Assembly: GCA_001761425.1 (NCBI GenBank)
Contig: CP012986.1
Location: forward strand, 420,001 to 452,000
Direction: 5' to 3'
Length of the DNA: 32,000 nucleotides
From: Candidatus Saccharimonadota bacterium
Lineage (GTDB): Archaea > Nanohalarchaeota > Nanosalinia > Nanosalinales > Nanosalinaceae
The notes under the pieces were generated by a model. That model was given only the letters and a program-made list of their open reading frames with translations. It made no database searches and was not told the DNA's origin. A program made the position numbers and the translations under genes. How positions within the stretch are numbered: the stretch's first letter is position 1; each line of letters opens with the position of its first letter. Shown in pieces: positions 1 to 32,000 of the stretch.

Positions 1-253
1 TCCTGGCTTCTCCTGATTCTTTCGGTTCGACTGTGATTTCTTCCTGTACGTCTATGATAGATTGGAGGTCTTCATCGGGCTGTATTGTGTAGGTGGTGGT
101 CTGGTTGCCTGTGTTTCTGATATCGGCAGTGTATATCTGGGTATCTCCTTTGAAGATCACGCTCAGTGATGGTATGTCGCTGTTGACGCTGAGGCCTGCA
201 CCTGAGCTTGCAAGCAGTAGTAAGAGGCCTGTGATCACTATTTTCTTTTTCAT
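1..253 (-). CDS. Secreted protein, 5' part only (84 codons, continues beyond window start)
   Basis: Manual reverse translation from ATG at 253..251 gives MKKKIVITGLLLLLASSGAGLSVNSDIPSLSVIFKGDTQIYTADIRNTGNQTTTYTIQPDEDLQSIIDVQEEITVEPKESGEAR. The basic n-region plus hydrophobic core is a Sec-type signal peptide. The mature part resembles the CARDB/NEW3-type beta-sandwich segments in the membrane-proximal part of the giant protein. The start overlaps the giant-gene stop as ATGA. It is absent from the ORF track because it is open at the window edge. Confidence 0.75.
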   Translation of the reverse strand, partial: MKKKIVITGLLLLLASSGAGLSVNSDIPSLSVIFKGDTQIYTADIRNTGNQTTTYTIQPDEDLQSIIDVQEEITVEPKESGEAR

Positions 254-3200
254 TTTATATCCATCTCGTCTTTGAGGCTGTCGATGTACATGTTTGCCAT
301 TTTGAATCTTCCTTCCTTGAGTTTGTTCTCCGCGAGCTGAAGTTCTAGGTCTTTGTCCCTTGTGTCCTGTCCCTGTTCTTCTCTTCTCTTGAGTTCCTGT
401 TTGAGTTTGTCAACTTCTTCTGAGAGGTTGTGGTATTTTTCCATTTCTTCGTCTGGTATTTTGTGTGGGTTGTGGTATGTAGGCCTGAAATCTACGAACC
501 ATGGCTCTCCGTCGTTGTAGTTTGAGTTCTGGATCATTCCTGTTCCTACGTCTTCGCTTGAGATTCTCTTGGCGAATTCCTGGCCGTATTTTTTCTCTAC
601 ACGGTTTATGTCTTCCATGGATTTGGTTTGCATCTGTATTTCTGTCATGATGTTTCCGGAGATTGCTTGTTTGAAGTCTGCTGTGACTTGTGATGCCATC
701 ATTAGGCCTATGCCCCATTTTCTGAATTCTCTTGCTCCTTTTTCGAGTGCTTCGTATCCTCCTTGTCCTCCGTATTCTTCTAGGAGTCTGTGGACTTCGT
801 CGAATACGATTAGCATCTCTAGGTCTGGGCTTTCTTCCCATTCTTTGTCGAAGATTTGATCGATTATGTTTCTTACTGCTCCGTCGAATTCTTCTGTCGT
901 TAACTGGTTTAGTGTGAATACTGTGATTTCTCCGTCGTTCTGAAGGTCTTCGAAGTTGATTTCAGGGTTTTCTGAGCTGATTTCCTTGATGACGCCTCTG
1001 TATGGATGTGCGTCTTCCTGTGCGTCCATTTCGAACCTGTCGTAGTGTTTCTCCAGGTCATCGTCCTTGAGTTCTTTCACGAATCCTGTCCACTGTGCTG
1101 TTGGGTCGAAGACGATGACCGGTACATCATTTTCTAGAGCTTCCTCTGCGATGACGTTGGCTGTTACAGATTTACCTGATCCTGTGGATCCTGACACGAT
1201 TGCGTGTGTTGTGAGGTCGCTTGGATCGATGAATGCATCTTTCTCTGTCTCTGCGATCTTTCCGACCCAGTAGTTGTCTTCTTCCTCCGGTGGAAGCCTG
1301 TCGTAGTCCACTGGGAAGACATAGCGTGCCTCTTCCTCCTTCCTGATCCAGTAGTACTGGTAGCCTTTCCAGCCGACGATACTGATCAGGATTACAGCAA
1401 GTATCAGGATCGTTGCCCTGGTCTTGAACGGGGTCCAGAACCTTTCCTCGATTACTACCGTTGCCGAATCAACTACTGTCTGGTTCTTAGCGTCCGCCAC
1501 CGTTTGAATGTAATAGCTGCCTGAAGGGATCTCCTGTGTTGAAAGCTCTCTCTGCATGGAAGTGGCTTCTTCTATACTGACAGAATCATTCAGTTCTCTT
1601 ATCACCTTGTCAGTATCGCTCTCCCTGAAGTAATGTGTGAAGTTTATCTCTACAGGAGTTTCCATAGTGATCTGGCTCACACGGGTTTCAAAGCTGAAGT
1701 TAGAGCCAGGCTCTACATTCTTCGTAAGTGACTTCACGTTTAGATCGAAGCCATCTATACCTTCTCTAGCCACAAGGATCGACTGCGAACTGTTCACGGT
1801 GGTATTGCCGTACTCGGCTACAATCTGGCCTGAATACGTCTTGATCTCTGCATCTTCAGGGATAACAGCCCTTAACTGGGTTATAACTGTCGAGTTAGCC
1901 GACACATTGATTTCAGTGTTATCAGGTCCAAGGAGCTCACTTATCTCGCCTTGGATCGACATATCAAGTTCTATACTTTCCTCCCTGTTGTTATCTATCT
2001 CAAGCAGGAAAGTTCTCTCCTCGCCACGGAACATGATAGGCCTGAAAATCCTTGGTGAGAGAACAAACGGCTCGGTAGCTATGTCTGACTTGTTCTCCTG
2101 CTCGGACTGGTTGCTGTCCTGACCGGTATTTGGAAGGCCTCCGCCTGTTGAGCCGCCGTTTTCATCCTGCTGTTCTTCGCCTCCTTGCTGATTCTGGTTG
2201 TTATCTCCATTGTTTCCGCCGTCATTGTTTTGAGGTGTGTAGAGTCTTTCAACGATGTAGGAGGAGGTACTGTTGGTTGAGGCCTGAACAACGTTTTCGC
2301 TCATGTTTACGGAGGAATTGAGCTGGTTCCATTCTGAGGTACTGCAGTTGCTGACATCGTCGTATTTACACTTGAATATCCTGAGGTTGTCCTCTTCTTC
2401 CTCGTCGAAGTCTTCGGTCTTCGAGTAGTTGAGCTGTACAGAGGCCTCTCCGAAGCTCATGTTGCTGTCGATGGAGACTCCTGTGAACGATCTGTTTGTA
2501 GTATCTTCCGGATGCTCAAACTCAACTGATTCTCCTGAGTCTACAGGCGAGACATTGACAGGATCAGATATGTCGTCTTCGACACTCGAGTTCACGAATT
2601 CGATATTGTGCACTGGCTCGTTTGTCTCCTCAGGCCTGTCAGGCTGAACATCCATGTTCACATCGTAACTCCTGTTCTGAACTTCTAGATCGTATTCTTC
2701 GCCGGTCGATTCCTCGATCAAGGTAGTATTTGATGAAGGCCTCTCGAACTTGAAATCAGTGTTCACACCGTCCATAGAGCCGGTGAAGTTTACGAATGGA
2801 GCAACAGATACAGGCAATTTTACCTCTCTTACATTGCCGTTTACATCCTGTAGGCCGACGACTACATCGTAGTCTCCGTCCCTGCCTGTTTCAGTCAGGT
2901 TTCCTGTGTAGAGGCCTTCACTCTGTTTGTTCATTGAAATGTTTTCTACTTCTGTGTCGTTCTCGAGGTAGATTCCTGTGGCGGAGACATTGTTGATTCC
3001 GACGTTGTCAGCGGCTTTTACACTGAGACTGGCGTTTTCTCCCTGGTTGACATTGTCGCCGTTTTTCGAAACTATGAACGGAGCTGTGACATCTCTGTAC
3101 TTGAGGCCTTTCCTGTCTTTGATCTCCAGGTTGTCTTTGAGGGCTGTAAGCTCGTAGCTTACGTTAACAGGGTTTTGATCGATGCCTGGTGCTTCACAGT

Positions 3201-6200
3201 TGATCTTCCAGAGGCCTGAACTGTTTGTGTAGGTGGAGTTCGTGTTTGAGCAGGTTTTTCCTTCAATTGAGGCCTTCCATTCTGAATCGTTGATCTGCCG
3301 TGTGTTGTTGTATGTGATGTTGGCGTAGGCCTGTACTGTGTCTCCTGCGGTGATGTTTTTCTTTCCGTTCTCTGCTGTGATGTTTTTGATATCCATTACG
3401 ATGTTTCTGACGTTAAGTGTTGTGTTCAGAGTCTCCAGTTTCTCGTTTTCTGGGTTGAAGAACGTTACTGTGCTGTTGTAGGTTCCTGGATCTGAACTGT
3501 TGAATCCTAGTTCTATATTTTTTAGTTCCTGTGTCTCTACGGTGCTTGCGGAGACAGTGATATTTTTCTGTATATCGAGTAGATCTGAGTTTTGTCCCTC
3601 GTAGATCTGGAGGAATAGTTCGCTTGTTTTGTTGTTGCTTACTGTGGCTGTATCGAATGTTCCGTAGGTTTCAGCTGCGACTGTTGTGTTGATGTACTCT
3701 GGGCTTATTGAGAAGTTCGTGGAGTTCGCTTCTCCGTCTGGGGAGATTTCCTCTCTATCGGTATTACCTCCGAGATCTTCTCCTGCTACGCTCTTTCTGC
3801 CTCTGCCTGTGTTAACGTTTAGGGTCTTGAATCTGTATTCTGAGCTTAGGTTGTAGAATCTGGACTGCTCTATACCAAGTTTGAAGTCGTAGGCTCCTGC
3901 TTCAGGTGGGAAGAAGCTCAAGTTAGCGCCTCCGTTTTCTCCTGTGTCAACGGAAGTCAGTTTGTTGACTTCGTCGAGGCCTACAAGCGTAGAGACGTTC
4001 TCTCCGGTTCTGTTGTGTTTGAAAGTCCATTCTATTTCTCCGACGTTTGAACCACATCTCTTCCTGTATTCGGAGATATTGTACTGTTTAAGCTCCCAGA
4101 GGTCTGTTGAACTGTATTTTTCAGTGTAGCTACAGGCCTGGGAGCTGTTTATCTCATCGTTGAAGCTTAAGTTGAACGGTAGTTCGCTCTGGGTCCAGAA
4201 GCTGACCAGTTCTGCTTCATCGAATGTTTTTGTATCTCCGCTGAATGCTTCGTAAGGCCTTCTGATCTTCACTGTATCGTTTACTGTCATGTTCGTGATG
4301 TTGGCAAGTAATGCGTTTCCGCCGAATACTCCTGATGTTCTGTTGCCTTCTACTTTGTCATCGAATCCTGGTTTTTCGCCGACGTATGTGCCGTTTGCCA
4401 GGCATGATCCGCTTTCGACACAGCTTTCATAGTCGTTGTTTACTGGAGCGGTCTCGAAACCTGTCTCTCTGTCCTCGTTACCTGATCCGAGAAGCTCACG
4501 GCTCATAAGCTCCTTCCTGTCTTCAAGGTCGGTATCTTTAACCACGATGCTCTCAACTGTGATTTCTCCGGAAGTGTTTACTCTGAGGCCTTTTACCGGT
4601 CCGTCTTTGAATTCTACTTCTTTCTCTGCGGATTGTTCTGTCGCTATGTTGTTCCAGCTTCCGTTTCTTCTGTAGGAGAGGTTCCAGCTTCCAGAGCTGT
4701 TTGTTTTGATCAGGAGTTTCTCTCTGTCTTCTAGGGATGTGTTGGTTTCTGCAAGGCTTTCATTTATTTCAAGGCCTTGTTCAGTGCTGTTGATTGTTCC
4801 GTTTGTTGTCCATTCTTCCGTGCTGAGGTTGATACTGTAATCTGGTTTTTTCTGTCCGTATCCCAGGTTGAAGCTGTAGTCATTGATCCCTCTGTCGGTG
4901 AAGGCCTCCCGTATTCTCGGTGTGATCTCTATGCCTGTGCTGTTGGAGAAGTTGAAGGCCTGTGTTTCCTCCGTCTGGTTCCAGAATGGTTCTATACCTG
5001 TTCTTATCTCGAGTTGTTTTTCTGTGTAGTTTGAGTCGAAGTAGTTGTCTGCTGAGGCTTTTACCGAGATGTTTTCGAGGCCTATTTCTGTACTGTTTTC
5101 TGGGTTCCAGGTGACTTTGCATTCTCCTGTTGTCTCTGTGTTGTTTGTCTGGCATTTTCCGATGCTTCTGTCCTTGAACTTGAAGTAGGCGGTCGCGTTC
5201 TCTACTGAGAGGCCTCTGTTTGTTACTTTTGCTGTTATCTCTGTATCTGTTGGTTCGCTGAGGTTGTCTCTGTATATTGTTTTGTCGCTGATATCTGTTA
5301 TCTCTGTGTTCAGTGTTCCGCCTACAAACACATTGTTCGTGATATTTGTGTTTGTATTATTGTAGTAGAGTGTCGAGTTGTCCTTGATCTCGGCTTTTAT
5401 CGTGTAGTCTCCGATAGTGGTGTTCTCTGTGTTCCAGGAGACGTTGTACCATCCATCAGGTCCTGTGGTATCGTTTCTCCAGGCCTCTGTGCTGTTGTCC
5501 TCGTATTTCCTGTAAAGCTGTACAGGGTAATCTTCTATACCTGTGGAGGTATTTTTATCCGCTACTCTGAGTGTCAGGTTGACGATGTCATCTTTGGAGT
5601 ATCTTCCGGAACCGTTGAAGCTGAGTTCGCTCCATCCGTAGATCGTCAGGTTGTTCCTGGCTCTGTCAGGTGTGTATTCTCCTTTCTCAGCTGTAGTGTT
5701 CAACTGGTAAGGGCCTAGGCCTAGTCCGTCGGTGTTCCAGAGGCCTTTCTCTCCTGTGCCGTTTGGATCTACTGTCTGGCCGTTGTGTATCCATTTGATT
5801 GTTGCTGATGTTTCGTTGTATGCATCTTTGACTCGCGCAAGTAGCTCCTGTTCGCCGTATCTGTGGACGATTTCTTCAGGTTTCTGTACTGAGATGTTTA
5901 GCTTCTCCGTCAGTTCCACATCTGACTGCTCCTCTGAGTTCTTTACTGGGAGGTACCATGTTCCTGTTCTGTTTTCTGTGATATCTGTCTTTAGGGTGTG
6001 GGTTCCGACATAGTCTTCATAATCTGTATGCCATTTTATCGAGCATGTGCCTTTTGTATCTGTAAGACTTGAGTTGATGAAGTCTCCTTCGTCGTAGAGG
6101 TTACAGCTGTAATCACTTACTTTACTGTTGTTTCTAGTGTTTACTACCTCTGCCTCCGCTGTTACAGTCGAGTTTTTCCTTTCTGTAGTTGAAGGCGTTA

Positions 6201-9200
6201 CCTGGTTGATGTTTATGTCGACAGGATCGTATACCTCAACGATTTTACTGTCGGATGTTTCTACACCTTCACTGTCTTCTGTACTGACGTTCAATCTGTG
6301 GATTCCTGTACTGATACTTTTTACTTCCCAGGAATCTTCTTTACCGCTTCCTATGTTGCTGTATCCGCTTGAAGTATTGATCGACCAGTTAACAGTGTTT
6401 GGAGTAACTTCTGTGCCGTTTTCGTCAGTTATTGTCGCACTTAGATCCTGTATCGATCCTCTTACTAGGTCTGTATCGTTTTCTCTGATGAGGCCTTCTC
6501 TAGGTTTTCTTATATCGACTGAGAAACCTCCTTTTATCTCGACTATGCTTTCACTTGTTGTGAAGTTATCGAAGTACTGGTTCTTGGAGGCCTTTGATCT
6601 GATCGTGGCGTTGACGGGGTTGGAGACATCTGTGTTCCATGTGATGCTACACTGGCCGCTGCTGTTTGTCTCACATGTCCTTGTTGTTTCAAAGTTTCCT
6701 GTGACGTTTGTGATCAGGTCTACTGTTGCGTTCTCGACTCTGTCTCCGTCTAGATCTGTTACCGTGTAGTTTAAGCTTACGTTGTGATCTGGCTGTTCGT
6801 CGTACCAGTACATATCTCTGTCATCGATTTCTCTGTCCACGCTGAGGCTATCGTTCAGTGTTATCTCGATGCTTTCCTGGCTGTCCGTTGCATTGATGTT
6901 TTCTGATTCTTTATCCTGTATCTTCGCGGTCAGGTTGTGAGGACCTAGTTCCTCGTTTCCTGCGTCCCATTCGAGCTCTGCGAGTTCATTTCCTCCTGTA
7001 GAGACGTTTCCTATCTTTGTACCGTTATCATACAGGGCGACATGGTATTCTTCGAAGGCCTTTTTGTTGCTGTCCAGGATATCTCTAACCTCGGATTGTA
7101 GGTTGAGGAGGCCTCTGTATCTCTGACCGGAGTTGTTCAGAAGTTCTACATCTGCTTTCTTGAATACGTTTACATCGACTATCTTAGCGTCCTGACAGTC
7201 TTCGCCTCCACAGTTTGTATTGTCTTGAGCTGTCGCTGTGAACTCTGCTATAAATCTGCCTGAGTTCTCTATACCATTTGTCTCGAGTGTAGTGTACCCT
7301 GTAGATCCTTTCGGAACGTTGAATCCTTCTCCGTCTACGTAGTAATAGTTTTCGTTAAGTAGGTCACTACCGTTGATGGGGCTTTTGGTCCTGGAGATTT
7401 CCACGTTTTCAAGGTCATAGTTACCAAAGCTGTAGATATCGAATTCTGCAAGCTCTGTGCTTTCACCCCACCAGATATCGGTTCTTTCAAGGCCTCCGGT
7501 CTCCTTAAGTACAGGGTTCTTTTTGACCTCGAGATCAAGGGTGTCAGATATCTCTTCTTCAGAGTAATCAGGGTTCACCCATTCCCCGAATTCAGAGACT
7601 CTTCTTGTACCCGGTGAGGCCTTGGAACTGATGTTTACAGATATTGTGGTACTGCAGCTTGAACCGTTTTTGATTTCTCCACAGCTGTAATCTGAGCTGT
7701 TCGTGACTATTCCTTGTTGTGCTAGGGCCTGTTGAATCGTTGTGTTGTAGGATGTAGCAAGGCCTGTATTTTCGAAGGTTACGTTGACATCTGTTTTACC
7801 TGTGTAGTTCTGTGTGATGTTGTTGAACTCTGTTCTGGATGCGTTCATCTCCAGTTTTCCTTCTGTCTTGCCTATGGCTTTGAAGACTTTCCCGAAGCTT
7901 TCTGTCCGGCTTTCCTGTGTACCGTCGGTCGCTGAAACTGTGATATTGTAGTATCCGCTGTTTTCAGGAGTATAATCCGTTGCATAGATGCCTCCTGTCT
8001 GGTTACCGGAGTTAGGTTGCACCAGGTTGAGGTCTGTAAATGTCTCACCAGTGTTTTCTATTGTAAGTTCTGTCTCTGCGATTTCGTTTGTATCAGTTAC
8101 GTTCACTCTGATCTGTGTTGATTCTCTGTTCTGCTCAGGCCTTGTTTCAGAGGCTGTCGCGAATGGGATCTTTGGAGGCTGTGCTGTAATGGCTAGTCTG
8201 TAGGTTGTGTTAGCTGTGTTGTCCGCCTGGTCTGTTACTTTTGAGATGAACGTGTAGGTTCCGTTCGTGGCGTTGAAGTACACAGGCCTTTCAACCAGTC
8301 TGTAGGAGGATTCGTTGTACTGAGGTATTTCCGTAACGTTTCCTGCAGGTCCTTCGTATGATTCGTTTGTTGCGTAAAGTGTTGTAGATAGATCAGTTTG
8401 GTCTGTCGTGTTCTTGAGCCTCCAATCCAGGTACCATTCTCCTAGGGCAGCGTCCGGATTGCCGTCACTGGCGTTCAAAGCATCAAGAGTACCAACATCT
8501 GGCTTGCTGTTGTCTATCTCAAGGCTGTAACCTGTCTCGTTTGTCCATCCTGCCTGGTCTGTCGCAGTTGCCTCGATATCACAGACGGTTTCTTCTGTGC
8601 ATCCGAGGTCTCCGGCCTGATCAACTCTGTACCAGATCGAACTTTTGGTACTGTTCATAGGTTCGCCGTTTATTTTTACGCTGGAAAGATTGTACCTGTC
8701 ACTGGCGTTGACTGTAAAGTTCAACGTGTGATCGCTTCTGACTACATCGTTCGTGGAGTTGGATGTCAGGTTCAGAATTGAGGGCCTGTCGTAATCAACA
8801 GTGTATTCAGCTTCGCTGTTTTTGTCAGTGTTGCCTGCCTGGTCAACAGCGGTGACGTTCACAAAGCTGTCATTATCTATCTCCACTACGCCTTCCCAGA
8901 CACTTTCCGGGTTGGCTCCTGAATTGTCGGTTTCTAGATGGCTGAGACTGTCGTTTTCGGCCGTCAACTCGGTTATTGAAGTTTCAGTATCATCTATCAG
9001 GGTAAGGTTGACTTCAAGATCAGAACTTGGCTTGACAACTCTATCGCTGTCGTTTATAGAGACATCAGTTATTTCAGGGTCTACATCATCGATAGTGACC
9101 TCGACAGAATTGTTTTCGTAGTTATCAGCCTTGTCCTCCGCTGTAACTGTCAGACCACAAACTTCTCTGTTCGCTTCAGTCACACACCCAAGTTCTCCTG

Positions 9201-25971: not shown

Positions 25972-26030
25972 AGTCCTCTTGAGAGTACTTCTTAACCGGG
26001 TACTTTTCGTGATAAGAAAACTCCCTCTCT

Positions 26031-26040
26031 ATTATAATAA
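26031..26040 (-). promoter_or_regulatory. TATA-like box (TTATTATAAT) upstream of giant gene
   Basis: It lies 60-70 nt upstream of the TTG start. A start site about 25 nt downstream would fall near 26005..26013. It overlaps the in-frame TAG at 26029..26031. Confidence 0.35.
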
Positions 26041-26122
26041 CAGTAATATCCGTATTAAAAACCTACTACAGCCTCAGCTTCAAACCTCCGAAAATCACCA
26101 ACATCTCATTATAAGTATAGGA

Positions 26123-26130
26123 AAAAATTA
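26123..26130 (+). promoter_or_regulatory. TATA-like box (AAAAATTA) for a probably leaderless transcript of the 1,292-aa gene
   Basis: It spans -30..-23 relative to the ATG at 26153. No Shine-Dalgarno-like GGTGA/GGAGG lies in between. An alternative element, CATTATAAGTATA, is at 26108..26120. Confidence 0.35.
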
Positions 26131-26152
26131 AACAAAATCAGGCCATACACAC

Positions 26153-29100
26153 ATGTCAAAATACTGTTCCAGAAAAAACAGGAAAACCAAACTCCTGACA
26201 GCATTCACAGCAGTAATACTGCTGCAAGGCCTCACAACAGCCTTTTCATCGCCTAACACTACTCAGATAATCTCTCCAGGCGATTCAGCTAATTTTACAA
26301 TAGAATCCCAGGCAGATAGCTTAACACTGAAAATACAGCCTCCGAAAGAGGCCTCAAAGACATTCGAGATGGATAAAAGTGGAGAAGTGTTCAAGACGGA
26401 GATAAAAGGCGGAAACTTTTCAAGAAAAGGCCTCTACCGCTACAGTTTCGGCAGCGGAACAGATAGATATCCAGAATACGGTAACTTTTCTCTGATTGTA
26501 TCTTCAAGAAATGAATCTCTGGAGAACAAGACTGTAAACGTTTCAGATACTGAGAGCCAGTTAAGTGGCACAGACTTTTGTGACTACAAGACAGATCCTA
26601 GTGACTTTGACTGCGAGTATGAGAACTATCAGGCAGGGATGATTCTTTCCTCTGCAGTAGGCCTTTATCTGAACACCTCCTCCTATGCCCGTGAGAAATT
26701 TGAGAACTTCACGTTTGGATCTTACTCTGACGGTACATGGGGCAGATGTGATCATGCTGAAGACGATTTTGACTGCGAAACAGGTTCAGGTCCTGTGGAA
26801 ATGCCTGCTGGAGTAAGACAGGGATCTCTTATTTATTCTCTTTGGGAGGCCTATGGTTTATCAGGAAACGATACTGTACGTGAACTGGCCTTGAATTACA
26901 CTAAAGGCTCTGCTGAGACATGTGATGTATGGAATAACTCATTTAACTGTACTACTGCCAGGGCACAGGGATTAATGGGTCTTGGATACTGGTCTGCGTA
27001 TGAGAAAACAGGTAATAACACTTTTAAGAGCATAGCAGAGAACTTGACTGAGACAAACTACAGCCATCCTGTAATTGCCTGGGCAAACCTCAAAGGACAT
27101 GTTTTTAACCCGGGAAAATCCTATCTTTCAGAAGCTGAAAACAGGACTAGAGAATGGCTTAACGAATGCCCAAACTGCAGCTCAGACGAATTCAGCTCTC
27201 TGAAAAATACTCTATGGACGGGCTACAAGATAACAGGGAAATACGGATACTACAGGAACGCAGTCAACTTGACAGCTTACTCAGATCACAGATACTGTTC
27301 CTGGAACAGCTCTTCATGTCAAAACCCTTATACTCAAGGCCTCTCAACTTTCAGTTACTGGAAAGCGCTGAAATCTCAGAAAGATCTTCCTCCAACAATT
27401 TCCAGGCCCAGGATAGATAGAGAAACTGTTGTAGGTGAGAACCTGACGGTGAACGCAGAATTTACTGGTAAAATAAAAAATCCTCAACTAGAATACCGCA
27501 GAAAGACAACGGGGAAAAATTCCTGGATCAAATGTGATATCAACTTGTTTGAAGGATGCGAGATACCAGGAGAAAACATTTCACAACAAGCTCCTTACAG
27601 CTACCGTTTTAAGTCGGACTCCTTTTCCTTCCCTAAAAACGGTTCTTTTACGTTCGCCCCATCTCTTGTGAAAAACACTTTCCTGGATGAGGCAAAATCT
27701 TTCAGCACCACAGACCCGGAAAGATGGTGTTCCCCATCAGAGGGAGATTACTCATGTGAAGATACAAGCCAACAAGCCTCCGTGATAAAGGGATTGACAG
27801 ATCTATTCACATTCAACGCAAGTGAGAAAAGCGCAGAATACTTCAAAAACATCTTGGAAAGGCCTTATGTAACTGAAAGTTTTTTCAGCCCTCTATGTAC
27901 CCCTCAGAACGGTTATATGAGCTGTGAGTACGGTGATAGTGCCCTGGAGCGCGATATCGAAGGAAGTGTAAGACAGGGTAAAATGATAGAATCTCTTCTC
28001 TCCTCATACCAGAGGAATGAAGAAGGGAGGACCTATCAGAGAGCTATGAACTATACACTGGGAGGAGCACAGGACTGCGATGTATGGAACAGAACCTATA
28101 ACAAATCATTCGAATGCGGAAGCACACGGGGACAGGCAGAGATGATAGAGGCTTATCTAAAGGCCTATGAAGTGACTGGGAACAAAACTTTCAGAGGAAA
28201 GGCCCTGAACCTTACACAGAAGGCCTTGAATATGACAGAGACTTCCAGGCTTGGTTCAGCTCTCTGGAAAGCAAACTCGTATTTCAACGAGTCTTACAGG
28301 AACCTGAGTATTTCAGATACCGCGGAGAACATATCTGGGAGCTTTGCTGGCTACTGTGTTGATAACTGTACGGTTGAACAGTACCTTGGTTCTTCTAACC
28401 TGTTTAGAGATGCTTTCCTTCATTCGGAGAAAGATTATTCATCTGAGTACCGTTCCTCTGTTTTGAATACTACTGCGGACGGTGAGTGTGGCCCTTACAA
28501 GCAGGATATTTCCTGTAGTTATCCTTCAGGCCAGGGAGGCCTTATGCAGTTGATGTGGGGTTCGGCCTATACGATGCCTGTCGAGTTGAAGGTTGAAAGC
28601 GAGTTTAATGTCAGCAAAGATACTTTGACGGTTGGAAAGGAGTTTTCTGCTTCGTGTTCGGCCCAGAATAATCTTGAAAACACGACTGTAAAGAATCTGG
28701 GCTTCGAGCTTTCTACGAGCGAAGGCCTTGACCTGGTATCTGGTAACAGAAGTTATGACGAAGGCGATCTAGAGTACGGTAATTACAGCGAGGTTTCATG
28801 GAGTATCGAGTCCAAATCTCCTGGTGATAGGAATGTTTCCTGTGCTATAACCTCGGACAGTGGTTACAGGGATGCTATAAACCGGGATATCACTGTCGAG
28901 GAGCAGGAGACGGATGATGGAGGTGAAACTTCCTCAGGTTCGGAGAGCGGTGGTTTCGTGGGAGGTTTCGCCGGTGAGGACAGTCAGCGAAATATTACCG
29001 TGGTTTATACGAACGCCTCAGATATGAACTGGAACAGGACACTTCTCACGCGTCTAGGTATTAACACTACTTACAGGAACTTCACTGAGAGGACAGAATG

Positions 29101-30031
29101 CTTCAGGCCTGTAAGAAAGATTAGAGGAGAAAACATTACTTTAGAGGCTGACAGTAGCTGTACTGGCGATGGAGCAGTTTTAATTGACAGGATACCTTCC
29201 AATGTTTCACTGGAGAAAGGGCGTAGAGTAAATGACCTGGCAGCCGCCAGGACACCGGAGCTGGAAAACAGTACGTACCTCAGCCTGGACTATACAGGCC
29301 TTAACACCTCTAATTTCCGCAGACCGCTCGTGCTTAAATCTAGTTACAGTCTGCCCCCTGTCAGGATAAATTTCAGTGCGGTAAACAACCAGTCCGCAGT
29401 TATCTCAGCGGACCTTAGCAGGGAACAGACCTGTGAAGTATACCGTGAAGGTGAAAAAATCCATTCAGAGGAGACTTCCAAACTGGTCTACCAGCCTTCA
29501 TCTCTGGGTTACGGGAATAGTACATATACAGTAGAATGCGGAGACAGGACCTTTACAAAGACCTTTACAAAAGCAAAAAAAGGTTCTTCAGGGCCACAGA
29601 GTCAAGAGAGTGGACAGGCCCTTCCCTTGATCAGGATAGTGGCTCTGTTATCCTTGTTAGCTGTTTCAGGCTTTGTCTTCGACAGGAGAGAATTTATCGT
29701 GGAAGAGCTGAGGATGAAACTCTTCGAGTACCGATTCCACAGGTTTGAGAAAGCTGTGGAGAATGGTGACACTGCTGAGGCGATCGAGATCTTTGACTCG
29801 ATGTCTAGAGATGTTTCAAAGGAAGTTCTGGAGTCTGACATGGATCTGATGCAGGGATTGATGCTTTACCTCTTGATTGACCTGGTAGAGGAGGGTAAGG
29901 AAGGTGAAGTAAACTTTGATGTTTCAGGTGATCTCGATGAGCTTGTTCAGAGATATGTGAAAAATTCGGACGGTAAATCAGTAAGGCTTGTCAGGGATAA
30001 GTACGAAGAAGCTACTGGAAGAGAAATATAA
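26153..30031 (+). CDS. Secreted, C-terminally membrane-anchored protein with two blocks of cysteine-clamped alpha/alpha-hairpin (toroid-like) repeats plus beta-sandwich domains
   Basis: The ORF is 1,292 aa with an ATG start. The signal peptide is MSKYCSRKNRKTKLLTAFTAVILLQGLTTAFS. The body is sequon-rich, and a TM helix lies near the C-terminus followed by a 116-aa acidic tail without sequons. Confidence 0.9.
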   Translation: MSKYCSRKNRKTKLLTAFTAVILLQGLTTAFSSPNTTQIISPGDSANFTIESQADSLTLKIQPPKEASKTFEMDKSGEVFKTEIKGGNFSRKGLYRYSFGSGTDRYPEYGNFSLIVSSRNESLENKTVNVSDTESQLSGTDFCDYKTDPSDFDCEYENYQAGMILSSAVGLYLNTSSYAREKFENFTFGSYSDGTWGRCDHAEDDFDCETGSGPVEMPAGVRQGSLIYSLWEAYGLSGNDTVRELALNYTKGSAETCDVWNNSFNCTTARAQGLMGLGYWSAYEKTGNNTFKSIAENLTETNYSHPVIAWANLKGHVFNPGKSYLSEAENRTREWLNECPNCSSDEFSSLKNTLWTGYKITGKYGYYRNAVNLTAYSDHRYCSWNSSSCQNPYTQGLSTFSYWKALKSQKDLPPTISRPRIDRETVVGENLTVNAEFTGKIKNPQLEYRRKTTGKNSWIKCDINLFEGCEIPGENISQQAPYSYRFKSDSFSFPKNGSFTFAPSLVKNTFLDEAKSFSTTDPERWCSPSEGDYSCEDTSQQASVIKGLTDLFTFNASEKSAEYFKNILERPYVTESFFSPLCTPQNGYMSCEYGDSALERDIEGSVRQGKMIESLLSSYQRNEEGRTYQRAMNYTLGGAQDCDVWNRTYNKSFECGSTRGQAEMIEAYLKAYEVTGNKTFRGKALNLTQKALNMTETSRLGSALWKANSYFNESYRNLSISDTAENISGSFAGYCVDNCTVEQYLGSSNLFRDAFLHSEKDYSSEYRSSVLNTTADGECGPYKQDISCSYPSGQGGLMQLMWGSAYTMPVELKVESEFNVSKDTLTVGKEFSASCSAQNNLENTTVKNLGFELSTSEGLDLVSGNRSYDEGDLEYGNYSEVSWSIESKSPGDRNVSCAITSDSGYRDAINRDITVEEQETDDGGETSSGSESGGFVGGFAGEDSQRNITVVYTNASDMNWNRTLLTRLGINTTYRNFTERTECFRPVRKIRGENITLEADSSCTGDGAVLIDRIPSNVSLEKGRRVNDLAAARTPELENSTYLSLDYTGLNTSNFRRPLVLKSSYSLPPVRINFSAVNNQSAVISADLSREQTCEVYREGEKIHSEETSKLVYQPSSLGYGNSTYTVECGDRTFTKTFTKAKKGSSGPQSQESGQALPLIRIVALLSLLAVSGFVFDRREFIVEELRMKLFEYRFHRFEKAVENGDTAEAIEIFDSMSRDVSKEVLESDMDLMQGLMLYLLIDLVEEGKEGEVNFDVSGDLDELVQRYVKNSDGKSVRLVRDKYEEATGREI
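26565..27390 (+). repeat. Alpha/alpha-hairpin repeat block 1 (five Cys-pair-headed hairpins)
   Basis: The hairpins are CDYKTDPSDFDCEYENYQAGMILSSAVGLY, CDHAEDDFDCET..VRQGSLIYSLWEAYGLSGNDT, CDVWNNSFNCTTARAQGLMGLGYWSAYEKTGNNTF, CPNCSSDEFSSLKNTLWTGYKITGKYGY and CSWNSSSCQNPYTQGLSTFSYWKAL. The AY..TGN..F signature recalls six-hairpin (alpha/alpha) toroid proteins. The fold is inferred only. Confidence 0.45.
27670..28585 (+). repeat. Alpha/alpha-hairpin repeat block 2 (duplicate of block 1 architecture)
   Basis: The hairpins are CSPSEGDYSCEDTSQQASVIKGLTDLF, CTPQNGYMSCEY..VRQGKMIESLLSSYQRNEEGRTY, CDVWNRTYNKSFECGSTRGQAEMIEAYLKAYEVTGNKTF, CVDNCTVEQYLGSSNLFRDAF and CGPYKQDISCSYPSGQGGLMQLMWGSAY. Confidence 0.45.
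28585..28900 (+). other. CARDB-like beta-sandwich domain
   Basis: The sequence is KVESEFNVSKDTLTVGKEFSASCSAQNNLENTTVKNLGFELSTSEGLDLVSGNRSYDEGDLEYGNYSEVSWSIESKSPGDRNVSCAITSDSGYRDAINRDITVEE. An acidic G/S linker follows it (28900..28990). Confidence 0.4.
29618..29680 (+). other. C-terminal transmembrane anchor of the 1,292-aa protein
   Basis: The helix is ALPLIRIVALLSLLAVSGFVF, followed by DRREF. Frame checked: 29618 is codon 1156. Confidence 0.8.
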
Positions 30032-30038
30032 TGAGTTG

Positions 30039-30064
30039 AGGCCTTTAACTGTTTTTTCAGGCCT
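30039..30064. terminator. Possible bidirectional terminator between convergent genes: two AGGCCT copies forming a 6-bp stem around a T6 run
   Basis: The sequence is AGGCCT(30039..30044)-ttaactgttttttc-AGGCCT(30059..30064). The hexamer is self-complementary, so the two copies can pair. T6 at 30052..30057 lies 21 nt after the plus-strand stop, and oligo-T is the usual archaeal termination signal. The second copy overlaps the RpoK stop codon. Confidence 0.35.
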
Positions 30065-30224
30065 TTACTGTGATAGGAAGTTTTTCCTGTTTCATTTCTC
30101 TCTTGGCGATGTCCATAGGCTCTTCGTCGCCTTCTGTGTCTACGAATGCTGGTGCTCCCATTGCGATTTGAAGGCTTCTTGCGCCCAGGACTCTTGCTTT
30201 CTCGTATCTTGTGAAATCTTTCAT
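30057..30224 (-). CDS. rpoK: DNA-directed RNA polymerase subunit K (Rpo6/RpoK)
   Basis: Hand translation (55 aa, below the ORF-track cutoff) gives MKDFTRYEKARVLGARSLQIAMGAPAFVDTEGDEEPMDIAKREMKQEKLPITVKA. This matches the RpoK/Rpb6 core TR(F/Y)EKAR(I/V).GAR.LQI.MGAP ... (I/L)PIT. ATG is at 30224..30222 and TGA at 30059..30057. The start lies 6 nt downstream of the PAC2-like stop. Confidence 0.85.
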   Translation of the reverse strand: MKDFTRYEKARVLGARSLQIAMGAPAFVDTEGDEEPMDIAKREMKQEKLPITVKA

Positions 30225-30230
30225 TTAGTA

Positions 30231-30995
30231 TCAACCTATGTAGCCTAGATCAGAACCTCCTTGACTGTCCTGATCAGGGCTCTGTGATTGTTTGAGGTTC
30301 TGAAGTTTTTTAAGCACTTCCTGTGATTCCTGAACTTTCTCATCCAGATCGCTGTAGTCAAGGTCTACTTCAAGGATTTTCTCTAGAGTCTGTAGAACTG
30401 CTTCAGTGGACTTCGGATCGCTCAGAAGGAAGCCCGGTGTTTCTCCAAGTATGCATACTCCTTTTATACCACGTTCCCGGCCCATGCTGACAAGAAGGCC
30501 TGAAACGCCGACTATCTGACCTACTTCGTGGTCAAATTCCAGGAACTCTTCATATATTTCTCTCTGATCTTCGTCCGTGACTGCTCCGAAGACATCAGGT
30601 TCTTCTACCACGTCTCCGGTTCCGTAACCGCCGATGGTGAGAATCTCATCTGCTTCTAAATCTTCGATGAAATCAAGTATTACCTCTGCTATATCGTAGT
30701 GTCCTTCAGGGTTTGAGGCCTGAGCATTGCCTTCTAGAAGGATGATATCTCTTCCTTCGTCTCTCTGAAGCTGGTAGATATTGTTTTTGATCATCTCCAC
30801 TTTTTTCCCATCATCGACTATAGTGTAAGGCGGGAAGTGGTGGCTGTGGATCTCGCCTATTTTCTCCGCTTCCAGGTTATCAGCCAGGTAACTTACACAG
30901 TTTCTTCCGATGTGACCGATGCCTGCGAGGCCTTCGATAAATAACGGGTTTTCTACTCCAGGTTCTTTATCCAGTTTCAGTTCAGTTTGAGACAT
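30231..30995 (-). CDS. PAC2-family proteasome assembly chaperone-like protein
   Basis: The ORF is 254 aa. The N-terminal LFIEGLAGIGHIGRNCVSYL motif, followed by HHFPP, ILLEGNAQ, ILTIGGYG and a C-terminal acidic/coiled tail, is the typical layout of archaeal PAC2 (DUF75) proteins. A GGTGA Shine-Dalgarno-like motif lies 10 nt upstream of the ATG. Confidence 0.8.
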   Translation of the reverse strand: MSQTELKLDKEPGVENPLFIEGLAGIGHIGRNCVSYLADNLEAEKIGEIHSHHFPPYTIVDDGKKVEMIKNNIYQLQRDEGRDIILLEGNAQASNPEGHYDIAEVILDFIEDLEADEILTIGGYGTGDVVEEPDVFGAVTDEDQREIYEEFLEFDHEVGQIVGVSGLLVSMGRERGIKGVCILGETPGFLLSDPKSTEAVLQTLEKILEVDLDYSDLDEKVQESQEVLKKLQNLKQSQSPDQDSQGGSDLGYIG

Positions 30996-31001
30996 ATTGA
31001 T

Positions 31002-31145
31002 TCATTCACCTTTCTTTGTCTTACGGCGGTATTTCCCGTATTTATCCGGGAAAGAAAACTTTGGAGGTCTCGCCCTCTCTGTTTCAACACCGCAGTGTTC
31101 ATCTTTCAACGTGTAACTACTGCATTCTGGACACTTTTTAATCAT
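31002..31145 (-). CDS. nop10: H/ACA ribonucleoprotein complex subunit Nop10
   Basis: Hand translation (47 aa, below the ORF-track cutoff) gives MIKKCPECSSYTLKDEHCGVETERARPPKFSFPDKYGKYRRKTKKGE. This matches the Nop10 pattern KKCP.C..YTLK..C......PPKFS..D.YGKYRR. ATG is at 31145..31143 and TGA at 31004..31002. GGTGA lies 6 nt upstream. The position directly after aIF2-alpha is the conserved archaeal arrangement. Confidence 0.85.
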   Translation of the reverse strand: MIKKCPECSSYTLKDEHCGVETERARPPKFSFPDKYGKYRRKTKKGE

Positions 31146-31164
31146 AGGAGTTCACCGAAAGGCC

Positions 31165-31920
31165 TTATGCACGGCTGAACCTGAACTCGCCGTCAAGTTC
31201 GTCCGCTTTATCTCTGATCTGGTCCACAGCTTGGTCCATTCGTTTCTTCGCAAGTTCCTGTGTCCGGCCCCAGGCCTTGATAGAGTATTTAGGTGCTGAG
31301 ATATATTTGACTTCCACTCCTTCCTCAAGGCCTTCAAAAGTCTTTTTTATGAGTTCTGTTCCATTACCCTGGCTGTATTCGAGATCGATCTCTCCCTCGA
31401 ATTTCTCCTGTTTCAGGTCGATGTTTTCACGGGCTACTTCCTGGACGGCCTCCACTATTTCTTCCTCCAGTAGGTCTTTCAGACGCTCTTCCTCGGCAAC
31501 TGATACCTCAAAGCCGTGGAAGCTGGATCCGAACTCTTCCTGGAGCTTGAAACCGATTTCCTCGTAGGCCTCTTTCTTTTCTATATCTAGTTTGTCTGCC
31601 AGGTCTTCGATGAAGGCCTCTGCTTTTTTCTCTTTGTTCCAGCGGGCCATTGCGTCTCTTTTCTGGTTCTCGTTTACTCTTTTGATGGAGAGGTTAATGC
31701 TATCTTGGTCTACCTCGATTACCTGTGCGACCGTCTTCTCTCCCTCGCCCAGTTCTTTTCTGACGTCCTGTATCCAGGAGCGGGAGACCTCGGAGATGTG
31801 CAGAAGCCCGTCGACGTCTCTGTATTCGTCAAGTTCTGCGTATGCCGAATTCTTGTCCACATCTGTAAGTGTTATTACAACAAAATCTCCTTCGTCAGGT
31901 TTATCTTTGTACCAGCGCAT
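31165..31920 (-). CDS. eif2a: Translation initiation factor 2 subunit alpha (aIF2-alpha)
   Basis: The ORF is 251 aa. An N-terminal S1-like OB fold (GDFVVITLTDVDKNSAYAELDEYRDVDGLLHISEVSRSWIQDVRKELGEGEKTVAQVIEVDQDSINLSIKRV) is followed by the helical and alpha-beta domains typical of aIF2-alpha/eIF2-alpha. Confidence 0.9.
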   Translation of the reverse strand: MRWYKDKPDEGDFVVITLTDVDKNSAYAELDEYRDVDGLLHISEVSRSWIQDVRKELGEGEKTVAQVIEVDQDSINLSIKRVNENQKRDAMARWNKEKKAEAFIEDLADKLDIEKKEAYEEIGFKLQEEFGSSFHGFEVSVAEEERLKDLLEEEIVEAVQEVARENIDLKQEKFEGEIDLEYSQGNGTELIKKTFEGLEEGVEVKYISAPKYSIKAWGRTQELAKKRMDQAVDQIRDKADELDGEFRFSRA

Positions 31921-31942
31921 AGATTCGTAGTGGAAAGTGATT

Positions 31943-31950
31943 CTTAAAAA
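31943..31950 (-). promoter_or_regulatory. TATA box (TTTTTAAG) for a probably leaderless aIF2-alpha operon transcript
   Basis: It spans -30..-23 relative to the ATG at 31920. There is no Shine-Dalgarno-like motif between the box and the ATG, whereas the internal operon genes do carry GGTGA-type motifs. Confidence 0.45.
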
Positions 31951-32000
31951 GACGCCTCTGGCTCCCAGATCAGGCTGTTAGTAACCACGATTTATTACTG

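Follow-up and report, generated by a model that had tools for sequence, protein, structure and literature searches.

The palindromic hexamer AGGCCT is about 17-fold over-represented in a 32,000-nt stretch of DNA (the window, i.e. the whole stretch analyzed) from a 1.1-Mb Nanohaloarchaeota contig, and neither a repeat element nor the makeup of proteins and codons accounts for this excess. An ongoing pressure at the DNA level, specific to this exact word, drives coding-permitted positions toward AGGCCT and is offset by ordinary GC-to-AT mutational decay. Comparisons across the phylum indicate that this pressure is present in some lineages, absent from close relatives, and can be lost.

Over-representation and layout of AGGCCT in the window

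The window holds 106 exact copies of AGGCCT (one per 302 nt), bearing out the ~105 given in the original prediction, against the 5.6-6.5 expected from 100 dinucleotide-preserving shuffles (5.56 ± 2.24, maximum 11) and from base composition (6.5). The GC content of 43-45% guessed in that prediction was slightly too low (45.9% when computed), but the expectation of ~6 copies stood, as did the claim that two thirds of ~160 GGCC cores are flanked by A...T (106 of 169, or 63%). The runner-up palindromic hexamer has only 21 copies, and the 18 words one mismatch away from AGGCCT have 2-21 copies apiece. Synonymous-codon shuffles (n=500), which retain all protein sequences and the codon usage gene by gene, yielded 14.1 ± 3.3 copies with a maximum of 24, as opposed to the 102 observed in CDSs (z ~26). 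This null had been proposed as a check beforehand, and the excess outlives its control of dipeptides and codon usage. The 102 sites fall in all three codon phases (15, 38 and 49) and in genes of either strand, both of which had been predicted, and the three examples offered are correct on the minus strand (AGG CCT, Arg-Pro, at 481; GCA GGC CTC, Ala-Gly-Leu, at 192; CAG GCC TCA, Gln-Ala-Ser, at 2280).

The window consists mostly of one gene for an 8573-aa surface protein, together with housekeeping genes. This giant acidic protein (250..25971, minus strand), which has a C-terminal transmembrane segment and a HerA/DUF87 P-loop ATPase, accounts for 81 sites, distributed over 13 Arg-Pro, 29 [Lys/Glu/Gln]-Ala-[T-initial codon] and 39 x-Gly-Leu contexts, so that 76-78% of its compatible contexts are filled (13/17, 29/38 and 39/50, respectively). 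Its TGA is overlapped (ATGA) by the ATG of a downstream signal-peptide gene, of which only the 5' part (1..253, minus strand) lies in the window, with AGGCCT at 192 and 225, both x-Gly-Leu. A gene for a secreted or membrane-anchored protein of 1292 aa (26153..30031, plus strand), with the opposite coding strand to the giant gene, bears 13 sites in all three phases, occupying 2/4, 4/9 and 7/10 of its contexts. An intergenic copy (30039..30044) lies between the convergent 3' ends of this gene and rpoK, which encodes RNA polymerase subunit K (Rpb6; 30057..30224, minus strand) and has one site (30059). The gene for a PAC2-family proteasome-assembly chaperone (30231..30995, minus strand) has three (30496, 30716 and 30928). 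A further copy lies in the Nop10-aIF2-alpha intergenic spacer (31160..31165), with its final base being the first base of the aIF2-alpha stop codon on the other strand. The aIF2-alpha gene itself (31165..31920, minus strand), used as the anchor for fetching relatives, has four (31272, 31328, 31566 and 31614). Exact counting upholds the nine copies earlier reported for 30057..31920.

The 106 sites thus form a dispersed array over the entire window (1..32000) with a mean spacing of 299 nt (minimum 14, maximum 1383) and a coefficient of variation of 0.95 (0.84 when pooled across enriched loci, see below). Tandem Repeats Finder recovered a single 29-nt array in the window, unrelated to AGGCCT, and no tandem or mobile-repeat structure. 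The flank matrix of the window, as the original prediction had it, lacks any extended consensus of the REP or MITE type around the core: composition is at background from ±2 outward, and only T at -1 and A at +1 are avoided. In housekeeping genes just beyond the window on the same contig the motif continues at 50 sites per 10 kb. A genome-wide excess is plausible, though it has been sampled over only ~42 kb of the 1.125-Mb contig and not counted.

Patchy distribution of the motif across the Nanohaloarchaeota

Confinement of the enrichment to this contig, which would have refuted the original prediction, was checked and does not hold, as the excess recurs in 12 nanohaloarchaeal genomes beyond the source genome. 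Enrichment is seen in four clades at 2.3-4.9 sites/kb, while relatives lying between them are at or below expectation. Each of these clades has 100/100 bootstrap support, the enriched genomes are monophyletic in 0/100 replicates, and clade D joins three non-enriched genomes at 100/100. This lineage-specific, patchy distribution within the phylum had not been foreseen. The pattern is consistent across independent JGI, Logan and NCBI complete-genome assemblies. The complete genomes, at least some of them from cultured strains, include the enriched Ca. Nanosalina sp. VS9-1 and M3_22 (our L005) and the non-enriched LC1Nh and a Nanohalococcus occultus record. Avoidance of a StuI-type site by its host is not seen in the enriched loci, where the site is 17-fold over-represented; some non-enriched relatives do avoid it, such as LC1Nh with 1 AGGCCT and 9 GGCC in 20.7 kb.

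The sister pair L034 and L035 shares 86% amino-acid identity, yet has 3.5 and 0.77 sites/kb, respectively. At 19 sites common to L034 and an outgroup L035 possesses decayed variants, and the single-step decays are all at a core G/C (19/19). This comparison shows a recent loss of the pressure in L035, with the ancestral sites decaying by GC-to-AT changes. Comparison of L008 with L010, L029 and L032 (outside clade B) recovered few sites with a mixed spectrum, and gain could not be separated there from an old loss.

In contexts shared between deeply diverged enriched genomes, occupancy is correlated (odds ratio 5-16), as selection would predict; in orthologous proteins of non-enriched relatives just 0-11% of shared contexts carry AGGCCT. 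Two strains with 97.8% identity differ at synonymous positions by 6/203 (3.0%) within motifs versus 317/6663 (4.8%) elsewhere, a difference that is not significant. Core C/T or G/A changes constitute 7 of the 9 strain differences in AGGCCT, but were rejected as a signal of methylation because transitions make up 79% of all strain differences. Among the matches listed for viral contigs with three AGGCCT copies 50-80 nt apart, the top ones are tandem-repeat artefacts (L153, L144 and L068, for example), and no nanohaloarchaeal virus is present.

Saturation of compatible contexts and effects on proteins

Pooled density is 3.62/kb in enriched loci and 0.21/kb in non-enriched ones, a 17-fold difference. 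Within the enriched loci coding and non-coding DNA have comparable densities (3.64/kb and 3.15/kb), and AGGCCT fills ~69-75% of the amino-acid-compatible contexts, as against 6% in non-enriched relatives (by locus, 0.48-0.89 in enriched and 0.01-0.25 in other loci). Taken with the codon shuffles (14 versus 102), these figures strongly support the proposal of the original prediction that the constraint acts on DNA and is not an amino-acid effect. Specificity is for the exact hexamer: neighboring words and other NGGCCN palindromes remain near baseline in enriched loci, and of the 829 pooled sites only 37 have C at -1 and G at +1, the commonest flanks being A/T, G/T and A/G. The motif also marks the encoded proteins, with compatible contexts being 1.5-2 times commoner in enriched genomes, Arg-Pro exceeding Pro-Arg, Gly-Leu exceeding Leu-Gly, and Arg-Pro being roughly doubled relative to expectation.

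Contexts with one, two or three mismatches to AGGCCT are all depleted relative to baseline, including those with mismatches only in the flanking A or T. The depletion is to 0.38x for one mismatch in the core, 0.62x for flank-only mismatches and 0.25x for two to three mismatches (a 4-fold drain). The pressure shifts the odds toward AGGCCT by ~35-fold per site (natural logarithm ~3.5).

Mutual exclusion at short range

The chance that a potential site is occupied roughly halves when an existing AGGCCT lies less than ~50 bp away. Among context pairs separated by 9-50 bp, double occupancy is at 0.43-0.58x expectation, with a return to ~1.0 beyond 50-75 bp, and 27 short inter-site distances are observed versus 52 ± 4.5 after shuffling occupancy. 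Self-limitation of this sort is predicted by the model of Elhai (2015, PMC4390886) for cyanobacterial highly iterated palindromes (HIPs). Avoidance of RNA hairpins was also considered as a cause of the exclusion. The 6-bp stem formed by a pair of sites is stable, with an energy of -8.8 kcal/mol at 15 nt that weakens only to -7.1 at 50 nt and -6.6 at 75 nt; hairpin avoidance does not obviously predict the sharp recovery.

Search for the responsible factor

No methyltransferase, nuclease or binding protein for AGGCCT was found in ~230 kb of enriched loci. Regular-expression motif scans of 50 loci matched only a conserved small methyltransferase with an NPPF motif, which probably acts on RNA or protein and is found in enriched and non-enriched loci alike; a gene of the endonuclease dU family (Pfam PF01949) was set aside on account of the same distribution. 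Unknown ORFs adjoining the loci gave no relevant Pfam or NCBIfam match. One ORF without a recognizable domain (orf244; L002, 5255..5989) is shared by clades A and D and by L010.

AGGCCT is a known target of restriction-modification (RM) and methylation. A REBASE-based survey (PMC10609329) lists for M3_22 exactly one RM-type gene, an orphan Type II methyltransferase predicted to generate m4C, whose specificity is unknown, with no Vsr (V = 0) and no m5C methyltransferase. The published SVXNc methylome comprises GDGcHC only, and the sampled record of that species (L051) is non-enriched. In the literature searched, no paper ties AGGCCT to nanohaloarchaea, and no prior report of the phenomenon was found.

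Possible mechanisms and alternative explanations

As a working hypothesis, held with somewhat less than even confidence, we propose that AGGCCT is a HIP-type motif of a subset of the Nanohaloarchaeota, driven by a factor that is gained and lost and is probably an orphan cytosine methyltransferase. The source of the pressure would be a sequence-specific protein of the RM type, acquired and lost by lineages, with an orphan cytosine (N4) methyltransferase of StuI specificity as the likeliest candidate; this is inferred, as neither the gene nor a methylome from an enriched strain has been seen. In its favor are the pairing of each alternative cyanobacterial HIP with a methyltransferase of that specificity (see below), the known role of AGGCCT as an RM and methylation target, and the single orphan RM-type gene listed for M3_22. 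Fixation would then favor methylatable alleles. The cause could be a ratchet of methylation-guided repair or gene conversion, such as Elhai proposed for HIPs in cyanobacteria, or else a dense methyl mark that is itself under weak selection. An extra site near an existing one might add little, which could set a density ceiling of about one per 200-300 bp. Ratchet and selection cannot be separated with present data: the occupancy correlation fits selection, while the strain-level divergence is not significant. Elhai's model further presupposes methyl-directed mismatch repair (PMC4390886), and a MutS/MutL-type system was not sought in these genomes.

A different possibility, which we regard as unlikely but far from negligible, is that no methylation is involved and that weak positive selection retains AGGCCT because something binds or recognizes it. 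The hexamer would be read by an abundant nucleoid or architectural protein or serve as a Chi-like or uptake-like 'self' signal of symbiont DNA, ideas already raised in the original prediction, and one site per ~50-bp footprint would be enough. The fairly sharp recovery from exclusion at 50-75 bp, the equal coding and non-coding densities (as if a density target were met) and the correlated occupancy across deep divergence are all in keeping with it. For HIP1, Xu et al. (PMC5861425) concluded that there is selection on chromosomal distribution, and the abstract of a 2024 preprint ties HIP1 to transformation efficiency. However, the trait is lost or absent in many viable sister lineages, and therefore any function must be dispensable; moreover, ~4000 sites would each need selection of ~3.5, which seems demanding if effective populations are small, as we assume. 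Palindromes are not typical of classic uptake and Chi signals, which are also biased to one strand. Genes for competence or receptors were not noticed, although machinery of the uptake or RecBCD kind was not specifically looked at, and the test of strain-level conservation lacks significance. A long shot is that AGGCCT serves ectosymbiotic nanohaloarchaea as a dense, methylated 'self' signal. An orphan methyltransferase that moves horizontally would write it, and a nuclease or repair system would read it so as to tell the symbiont's own chromosome from host DNA taken up via a cell-cell bridge (a palindromic Chi-like or anti-degradation mark). If true, gaining or losing just one pair of genes would turn on or off a sequence drive acting across the genome, and this drive would be strong enough to rewrite ~2% of codons and to shift the dipeptide content of proteins.

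Very-short-patch repair by a Vsr-like enzyme coupled to C5-methylation of AGGCCT, in which T:G to C:G correction of near-cognate sites accumulates the motif, had been suggested in the original prediction, but is disfavored by our results and strikes us as highly improbable. AGGCCT is indeed a palindrome and a known cytosine-methylation target, the decay following loss is mainly by core C-to-T and G-to-A changes, and core one-mismatch contexts are more depleted than those of the flanks. Nonetheless, the check proposed alongside it, for depletion of the deamination products, gave 0.84x (AGGTCT/AGACCT) and 0.95x (AGGCTT/AAGCCT) of the level in non-enriched relatives, i.e. no depletion. The drive on the A and T flanks and the draining of contexts with two to three mismatches are beyond the reach of T:G-to-C:G repair, and saturation of 70-89% is far above the CCWGG excess in E. 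coli, which is modest. For M3_22 the REBASE survey (PMC10609329) also lists neither Vsr nor an m5C methyltransferase. Virtually no room remains for explaining the excess by the usage of amino acids, dipeptides or codons, by domain repeats within the giant gene or by misassembly. One giant gene, whose protein is rich in Gly, Ser, Thr, Asp, Asn and Glu, does dominate the window, and a maximal-order Markov model expects 93.9 copies; but this last figure was rejected as circular because the 5-mers AGGCC and GGCCT are almost wholly the motif itself. The protein- and codon-preserving shuffles already refute this reading, the motif is denser (5 per kb) in housekeeping genes beyond the giant one and just as enriched in non-coding DNA, its sites belong to no tandem or dispersed repeat, and the independent assemblies concur.

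Comparison with known systems

Of the known systems, the Dcm/Vsr-related CCWGG bias of E. coli likewise centers on a palindromic cytosine-methylation site and is caused by repair rather than coding; it differs in that the T-variants of AGGCCT are undepleted, the flanks are driven too and the survey entry for M3_22 has no Vsr. Uptake sequences (USS/DUS) and Chi are also short genome-wide words, occurring roughly once per kb or more often, linked to uptake or recombination and marking 'self' DNA, but they are non-palindromic, 8-12 nt long and often strand- or position-biased, whereas AGGCCT is a symmetric hexamer without extension and of similar coding and non-coding density. The persistent orphan m4C methyltransferases of archaea (e.g. 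those for CTAG in Halobacteria; PMC10609329) are Type II enzymes with short palindromic sites, common in archaea and of the same class as the M3_22 gene. CTAG in Halobacteria is, however, under-represented, the opposite of AGGCCT, and the persistent methyltransferases listed in that survey have 4-5-bp sites (PMC10609329).

The closest parallel is with the cyanobacterial HIP1, GCGATCGC (Elhai 2015, PMC4390886; Xu, Lawrence and Durand 2018, PMC5861425), which is a short exact palindrome over-represented 15-300-fold, at up to one site per ~350 nt, inside and between ORFs and in all frames, and is not a mobile repeat. It is lineage-specific with losses in some members, contains methyltransferase recognition sites, and its mechanism and function are unresolved amid the same debate between repair ratchet and selection. 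AGGCCT has four hallmarks of a HIP-type motif, namely an observed/expected ratio of at least about 15, occurrence in all frames within and between ORFs, absence of a longer repeat, and lineage-specificity with loss. HIP1 is nonetheless an octamer, cyanobacterial and near phylum-wide, whereas AGGCCT is a hexamer of DPANN archaea, patchy among close relatives and without an identified cognate methyltransferase as yet. HIP1 has a long-range periodicity of 10-90 kb, and its sites are reported to be conserved beyond codon level (Xu 2018, PMC5861425); we are unaware of a report for HIP1 of the mutual exclusion below 50 bp or the ~70% saturation of synonymous opportunities seen for AGGCCT. The alternative HIPs, which are GC-rich palindromes replacing HIP1 in isolated lineages, include GGCGCC in Calothrix PCC 7103 (like AGGCCT a hexamer, with a ratio of ~15 or more), rCCGGy in Oscillatoria PCC 10802 and GCsGC in Cyanothece PCC 7822, each accompanied by a methyltransferase of matching specificity (Elhai 2015, PMC4390886). 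Another, CAGGCCTG in Synechococcus sp. PCC 6312 (Xu 2018, PMC5861425), has AGGCCT as its core, but the nanohaloarchaeal flanks are not C...G (37/829), and therefore the unit is the bare hexamer, found moreover in at least four clades of archaea.

For ~30 years the extreme abundance of certain palindromes in cyanobacteria has defied explanation, and the near phylum-wide occurrence of HIP1 provides little comparative contrast there. The same type of phenomenon is now found in DPANN archaea with genomes of just ~1 Mb, on in some and off in close relatives, and the L034/L035 pair catches a loss in progress. Given this contrast, the causal gene should be findable by presence/absence profiling, and ratchet and selection should be testable using population data and complete genomes of both kinds. 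The filling of ~70-89% of synonymous opportunities, along with the effect on Arg-Pro, illustrates how strong a DNA-level pressure can be, and this bears on codon-usage models and on the phylogenetics of the fast-evolving nanohaloarchaeal symbionts; the density of AGGCCT is also a sharp lineage marker and hence matters for binning. Its ~17-fold excess and its occupancy of about three quarters of the coding-permitted positions make AGGCCT an archaeal equivalent of the as yet unexplained cyanobacterial HIPs.

Over-representation of AGGCCT in the window

The window (45.9% GC) contains 106 exact copies of the palindromic hexamer AGGCCT, or one per 302 nt, against an expectation of 5.56 ± 2.24 copies and a maximum of 11 in dinucleotide-preserving shuffles. 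The runner-up among palindromic hexamers occurs 21 times and the one-mismatch neighbors of AGGCCT 2-21 times each, and A...T flanks are found on 106 of the 169 GGCC cores. The over-representation is real and very strong; the original prediction had counted about 105 copies and placed such flanks on about two thirds of the cores, both of which are borne out, and its coordinates are right, as are the three codon examples it gave. Outside positions +/-1 the flanks of the hexamer have background composition, the sole bias being an avoidance of T at -1 and of A at +1. No repeats carrying the hexamer were detected, Tandem Repeats Finder recovering a single unrelated array in the window (5234..5291, inside the giant gene; a 29-nt unit present twice with 79% matches), and neither tRNA genes nor Rfam families were matched in the window.

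The giant gene (250..25971, minus strand) is a single ORF coding for an acidic surface protein of 8573 aa, which is rich in Ser, Asp, Asn, Thr and Glu and displays abundant N-x-S/T sequons and one weak Ig-like match. After its C-terminal membrane segment comes a HerA/DUF87 (ResIII-like) P-loop ATPase domain on the cytoplasmic side. The protein is similar to giant proteins of the 'SPEARE' type known from nanohaloarchaea, which are DPANN episymbionts of haloarchaea. Its start is uncertain because the JGI call is of 8573 aa and the Logan call of 8437 aa. The TGA of this gene overlaps, as ATGA, the ATG of a downstream gene for a signal-peptide-bearing protein (5' part at 1..253, minus strand; continuing past the left end of the window), suggesting translational coupling of the two within one operon. 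To the right of the giant gene lie a plus-strand gene for a secreted protein of 1292 aa and then, in this order on the minus strand, the genes for RpoK, a PAC2 chaperone, Nop10 and aIF2-alpha. A strong AT skew (-0.2 to -0.45) extends over 1..26000, across the giant gene, with a coding strand very rich in A relative to T, and flips sign over the plus-strand 1292-aa gene. An identical aIF2-alpha protein is present on the JGI contig Ga0136257_100001 (1,125,078 bp) and in a Logan assembly, and its closest named homologs come from 'Candidatus Nanohalobium sp.' MAGs (82% identity) and other Nanohaloarchaeota. The window thus derives from a nanohaloarchaeon, and its contig approaches the length of a complete genome.

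Independence from coding and composition

The hexamer occurs in all three codon phases, namely 15 times as AGG CCT (Arg-Pro), 38 times as xAG GCC Txx and 49 times as xxA GGC CTx. Synonymous codons were shuffled within each gene such that the protein, all dipeptides and codon usage (itself inflated by the motif) remained fixed, which yielded 14.1 ± 3.3 copies as opposed to the 102 observed. Hence, the excess persists under the codon-shuffled null called for in the original prediction, whose core interpretation of a DNA-level constraint rather than an amino-acid effect was right. About three quarters of the compatible contexts, i.e. sites where the amino acids permit AGGCCT, are filled; the fractions for the three phases are 13/17, 29/38 and 39/50 in the giant gene and 14/16, 21/30 and 15/20 in the housekeeping genes. 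A 10 kb region adjoining the window, with genes for PCNA, primase, GINS and ribosomal proteins, has 50 further copies. When loci of AGGCCT-rich (enriched) nanohaloarchaea are pooled, the density is 3.64/kb inside open frames and 3.15/kb outside them, the corresponding values in non-enriched relatives being 0.197/kb and 0.196/kb. The excess is thus not caused by coding or composition. The protein sequences themselves are shifted alongside the motif: Arg-Pro is at about twice its expectation with no rise in Pro-Arg, and Gly-Leu is at 1.25-1.6x with Leu-Gly at about 1.0.

Distribution among nanohaloarchaea

The comparison set comprised 46 aIF2-alpha loci from GTDB species representatives and four more obtained by exact-protein look-up. 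AGGCCT density across these loci is bimodal: a high group with 2.3-4.9/kb (loci L002/L049/L050/L003/L004, L005/L012, L008/L020 and L025/L018/L028/L034, of which L002 is the right neighbor of the window on its own contig) is set apart from all other loci, which have 0.05-0.8/kb, at or below compositional expectation. The complete genomes of Ca. Nanosalina sp. VS9-1 (NZ_CP180230) and strain M3_22 (L005, CP046106) belong to the enriched set. Among the non-enriched genomes are Ca. Nanohalobium constans LC1Nh, whose 20.7 kb locus contains one AGGCCT and just 9 GGCC, and a Ca. Nanohalococcus occultus record with four AGGCCT. Compatible contexts are occupied at 0.48-0.89 in enriched loci versus 0.01-0.25 in the others, and are themselves 1.5-2x commoner per 1000 aa in enriched genomes. 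In a neighbor-joining tree of six proteins with 100 bootstraps, the enriched loci form four clades, each with 100% support, but the enriched set as a whole is monophyletic in 0/100 replicates; clade D (VS9-1 and a relative) joins three non-enriched genomes in 100/100.

Two side observations emerged from this set. In LC1Nh (L052, CP040089) and the loci L047 and L013 a stretch of about 20.7 kb has a mere 9-10 GGCC, a strong depletion, and 1-2 AGGCCT versus about four expected, as if a GGCC-type restriction activity were operating; some nanohaloarchaea thus avoid the very core that is hyper-abundant in others. Further, a record titled 'MAG: Colwellia polaris' in GenBank (L030, JBLGBK010000003.1) contains a syntenic nanohaloarchaeal aIF2-alpha locus with 65% identity, and its placement within Nanohaloarchaeota in the tree implies that the MAG is probably mislabeled or contaminated.

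Loss, turnover and sharing of sites

The soda-lake MAGs LKMX01000003 (L034) and LKMP01000001 (L035) are sisters with 86% amino-acid identity, yet have 3.5 and 0.77 sites/kb, and 42.9% and 38.5% GC, respectively. At 19 positions where AGGCCT is common to L034 and an outgroup, L035 has a decayed variant. The 19 single-step decays, of which 14 are transitions, all hit one of the four G/C positions of the core and never the A/T flanks. This implies that the motif is ancestral in the clade and that ordinary GC-to-AT mutation erodes it once the pressure is gone. The pressure on AGGCCT is thus ongoing and can be lost, and this sister pair offers a natural experiment for locating the causal gene.

On a shorter scale, a strain pair at 97.8% nucleotide identity has 87 sites in common and nine that differ, of which six polarize as losses and about two as gains; its synonymous divergence is lower in motifs (6/203) than elsewhere (317/6663), though not significantly so. 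In aligned contexts of two enriched genomes, the second is occupied with a probability of 0.84-0.89 if the first is occupied and 0.33-0.53 if it is not (odds ratio 5-16), and non-enriched orthologs have AGGCCT at 0-11% of these contexts. Furthermore, 40-55% of sites align with amino acids in relatives that cannot encode AGGCCT, indicating that turnover includes non-synonymous change.

Strength, specificity and spacing

Pooled occupancy is 0.69 in enriched versus 0.06 in non-enriched genomes, an odds ratio of about 35 (ln about 3.5). In the enriched genomes contexts with 2-3 mismatches fall to 0.25x of baseline, those with one mismatch in the core to 0.38x and those with flank-only mismatches to 0.62x, such that all mismatch routes converge on the full hexamer, A and T flanks included. 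The boost is limited to AGGCCT: half-matching AGGCCN words are up 1.3-5x, and GGGCCC (1.6x, with a very low starting level), CGGCCG (0.47x) and TGGCCA (0.57x) have no comparable rise.

The sites are also spaced more evenly than expected. Inter-site distances are under-dispersed (CV 0.84), with 2.1% lying below a tenth of the mean versus 9.5% expected, and the nearest site is within 30 bp for 17.7% of unoccupied versus 6.4% of occupied contexts (p about 1e-7). When two contexts lie 9-50 bp from each other, their joint occupancy is only 0.43-0.58 of that predicted under independence, a ratio that returns to 0.9-1.0 past 50-75 bp. As AGGCCT is self-complementary, two sites near each other could pair into a GC-rich hairpin with a 6-bp stem, with computed energies of -8.8, -7.1 and -6.6 kcal/mol at 15, 50 and 75 nt. 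Avoidance of such hairpins is therefore possible, but the energy weakens only gradually with distance, and the abrupt return to independence does not readily follow from it.

Potential mechanisms

The exact specificity for a palindromic hexamer suggests a protein that acts as a dimer and recognizes a defined sequence, of the restriction-modification (RM) type, and the patchy, reversible distribution suggests a gene that lineages acquire and lose. By inference, the pressure toward AGGCCT would come from a protein of this kind. The original prediction had offered very-short-patch-like repair as one candidate cause, but this fails its tests: the deamination-product words, whose depletion it had proposed to examine, keep 0.84-0.95x of their baseline frequency, the pressure extends to the A and T flanks, and a REBASE-based survey of archaeal RM systems lists neither Vsr nor an m5C methyltransferase for M3_22 (PMC10609329). 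The same survey gives M3_22 exactly one RM-type gene, an orphan Type II methyltransferase predicted to be m4C-forming, and the non-enriched LC1Nh a Type I system, a Type IIG enzyme and an m5C methyltransferase (PMC10609329). No DNA methyltransferase was found in the comparison loci, which sample aIF2-alpha neighborhoods only.

For the highly iterated palindromes (HIPs) of cyanobacteria, Elhai found a methyltransferase of matching specificity accompanying each alternative HIP and proposed a repair ratchet guided by methylation, saturating at sufficient site density (PMC4390886), whereas Xu et al. argue instead for selection on site distribution (PMC5861425). Our data fit a methyltransferase-linked HIP, with the link to a methyltransferase being inferred rather than shown and no cognate enzyme identified, and are compatible with either a repair ratchet or weak selection. 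We lean slightly toward drive, both because there are many viable sister lineages without the motif and because some 4000 weakly selected sites seem a heavy load if effective populations are small, as assumed here.

Two genes of L002 deserve mention in their own right. A 244-aa acidic ORF between PCNA and MsrB (5255..5989, plus strand), without Pfam or NCBIfam matches, is present in loci of the enriched clades A and D and in L010 (JBEQAY) and absent from most others, but no link to the motif has been shown. An endonuclease dU family gene (1597..2169, plus strand; Pfam PF01949 'Endo_dU', weak NCBIfam 'EndoDuHalo' match) occurs in enriched and non-enriched loci alike and hence does not track the trait.

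Relationship to highly iterated palindromes

AGGCCT does not belong with the USS/DUS/Chi-type words, with REP elements or with avoided restriction sites, and no earlier report of its excess in nanohaloarchaea was found in the literature searched. The published nanohaloarchaeal methylome, that of SVXNc, has the motif GDGcHC, and the record of its species sampled here (L051) is non-enriched. Among viral contigs, the IMG/VR sequences L153, L144 and L068 owe their high AGGCCT counts to tandem-repeat artefacts rather than dispersed enrichment (periods of 73, 63 and 15-30 nt in low-complexity Gly-Leu or Val/Lys/Gln-rich repeat ORFs). A tailed-phage-like contig (L086, IMGVR_UViG_3300006867_000009, 1..6191; 55.6% GC), in which visual inspection of the translations indicated terminase- and portal-like ORFs, carries AGGCCT 17 times within 6.2 kb, at irregular intervals and about 9x the expected frequency, and encodes a small NPPY-motif DNA methyltransferase beside the putative terminase genes; the enrichment may thus not be confined to archaea.

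In its descriptive features, AGGCCT is like the cyanobacterial HIP1, GCGATCGC: it is a palindrome with an observed/expected ratio of 15 or more, present in all frames and in coding and non-coding DNA, is not a repeat and is lineage-specific. Alternative HIPs are known from Calothrix PCC 7103 (GGCGCC) and Synechococcus PCC 6312 (CAGGCCTG), the latter with AGGCCT itself as its core. AGGCCT is the HIP phenomenon with a new sequence and in a new domain of life, an addition to a known yet unexplained kind. Being switched on in some and off in other closely related lineages of small genome size, it offers unusually good access to the long-standing HIP question.
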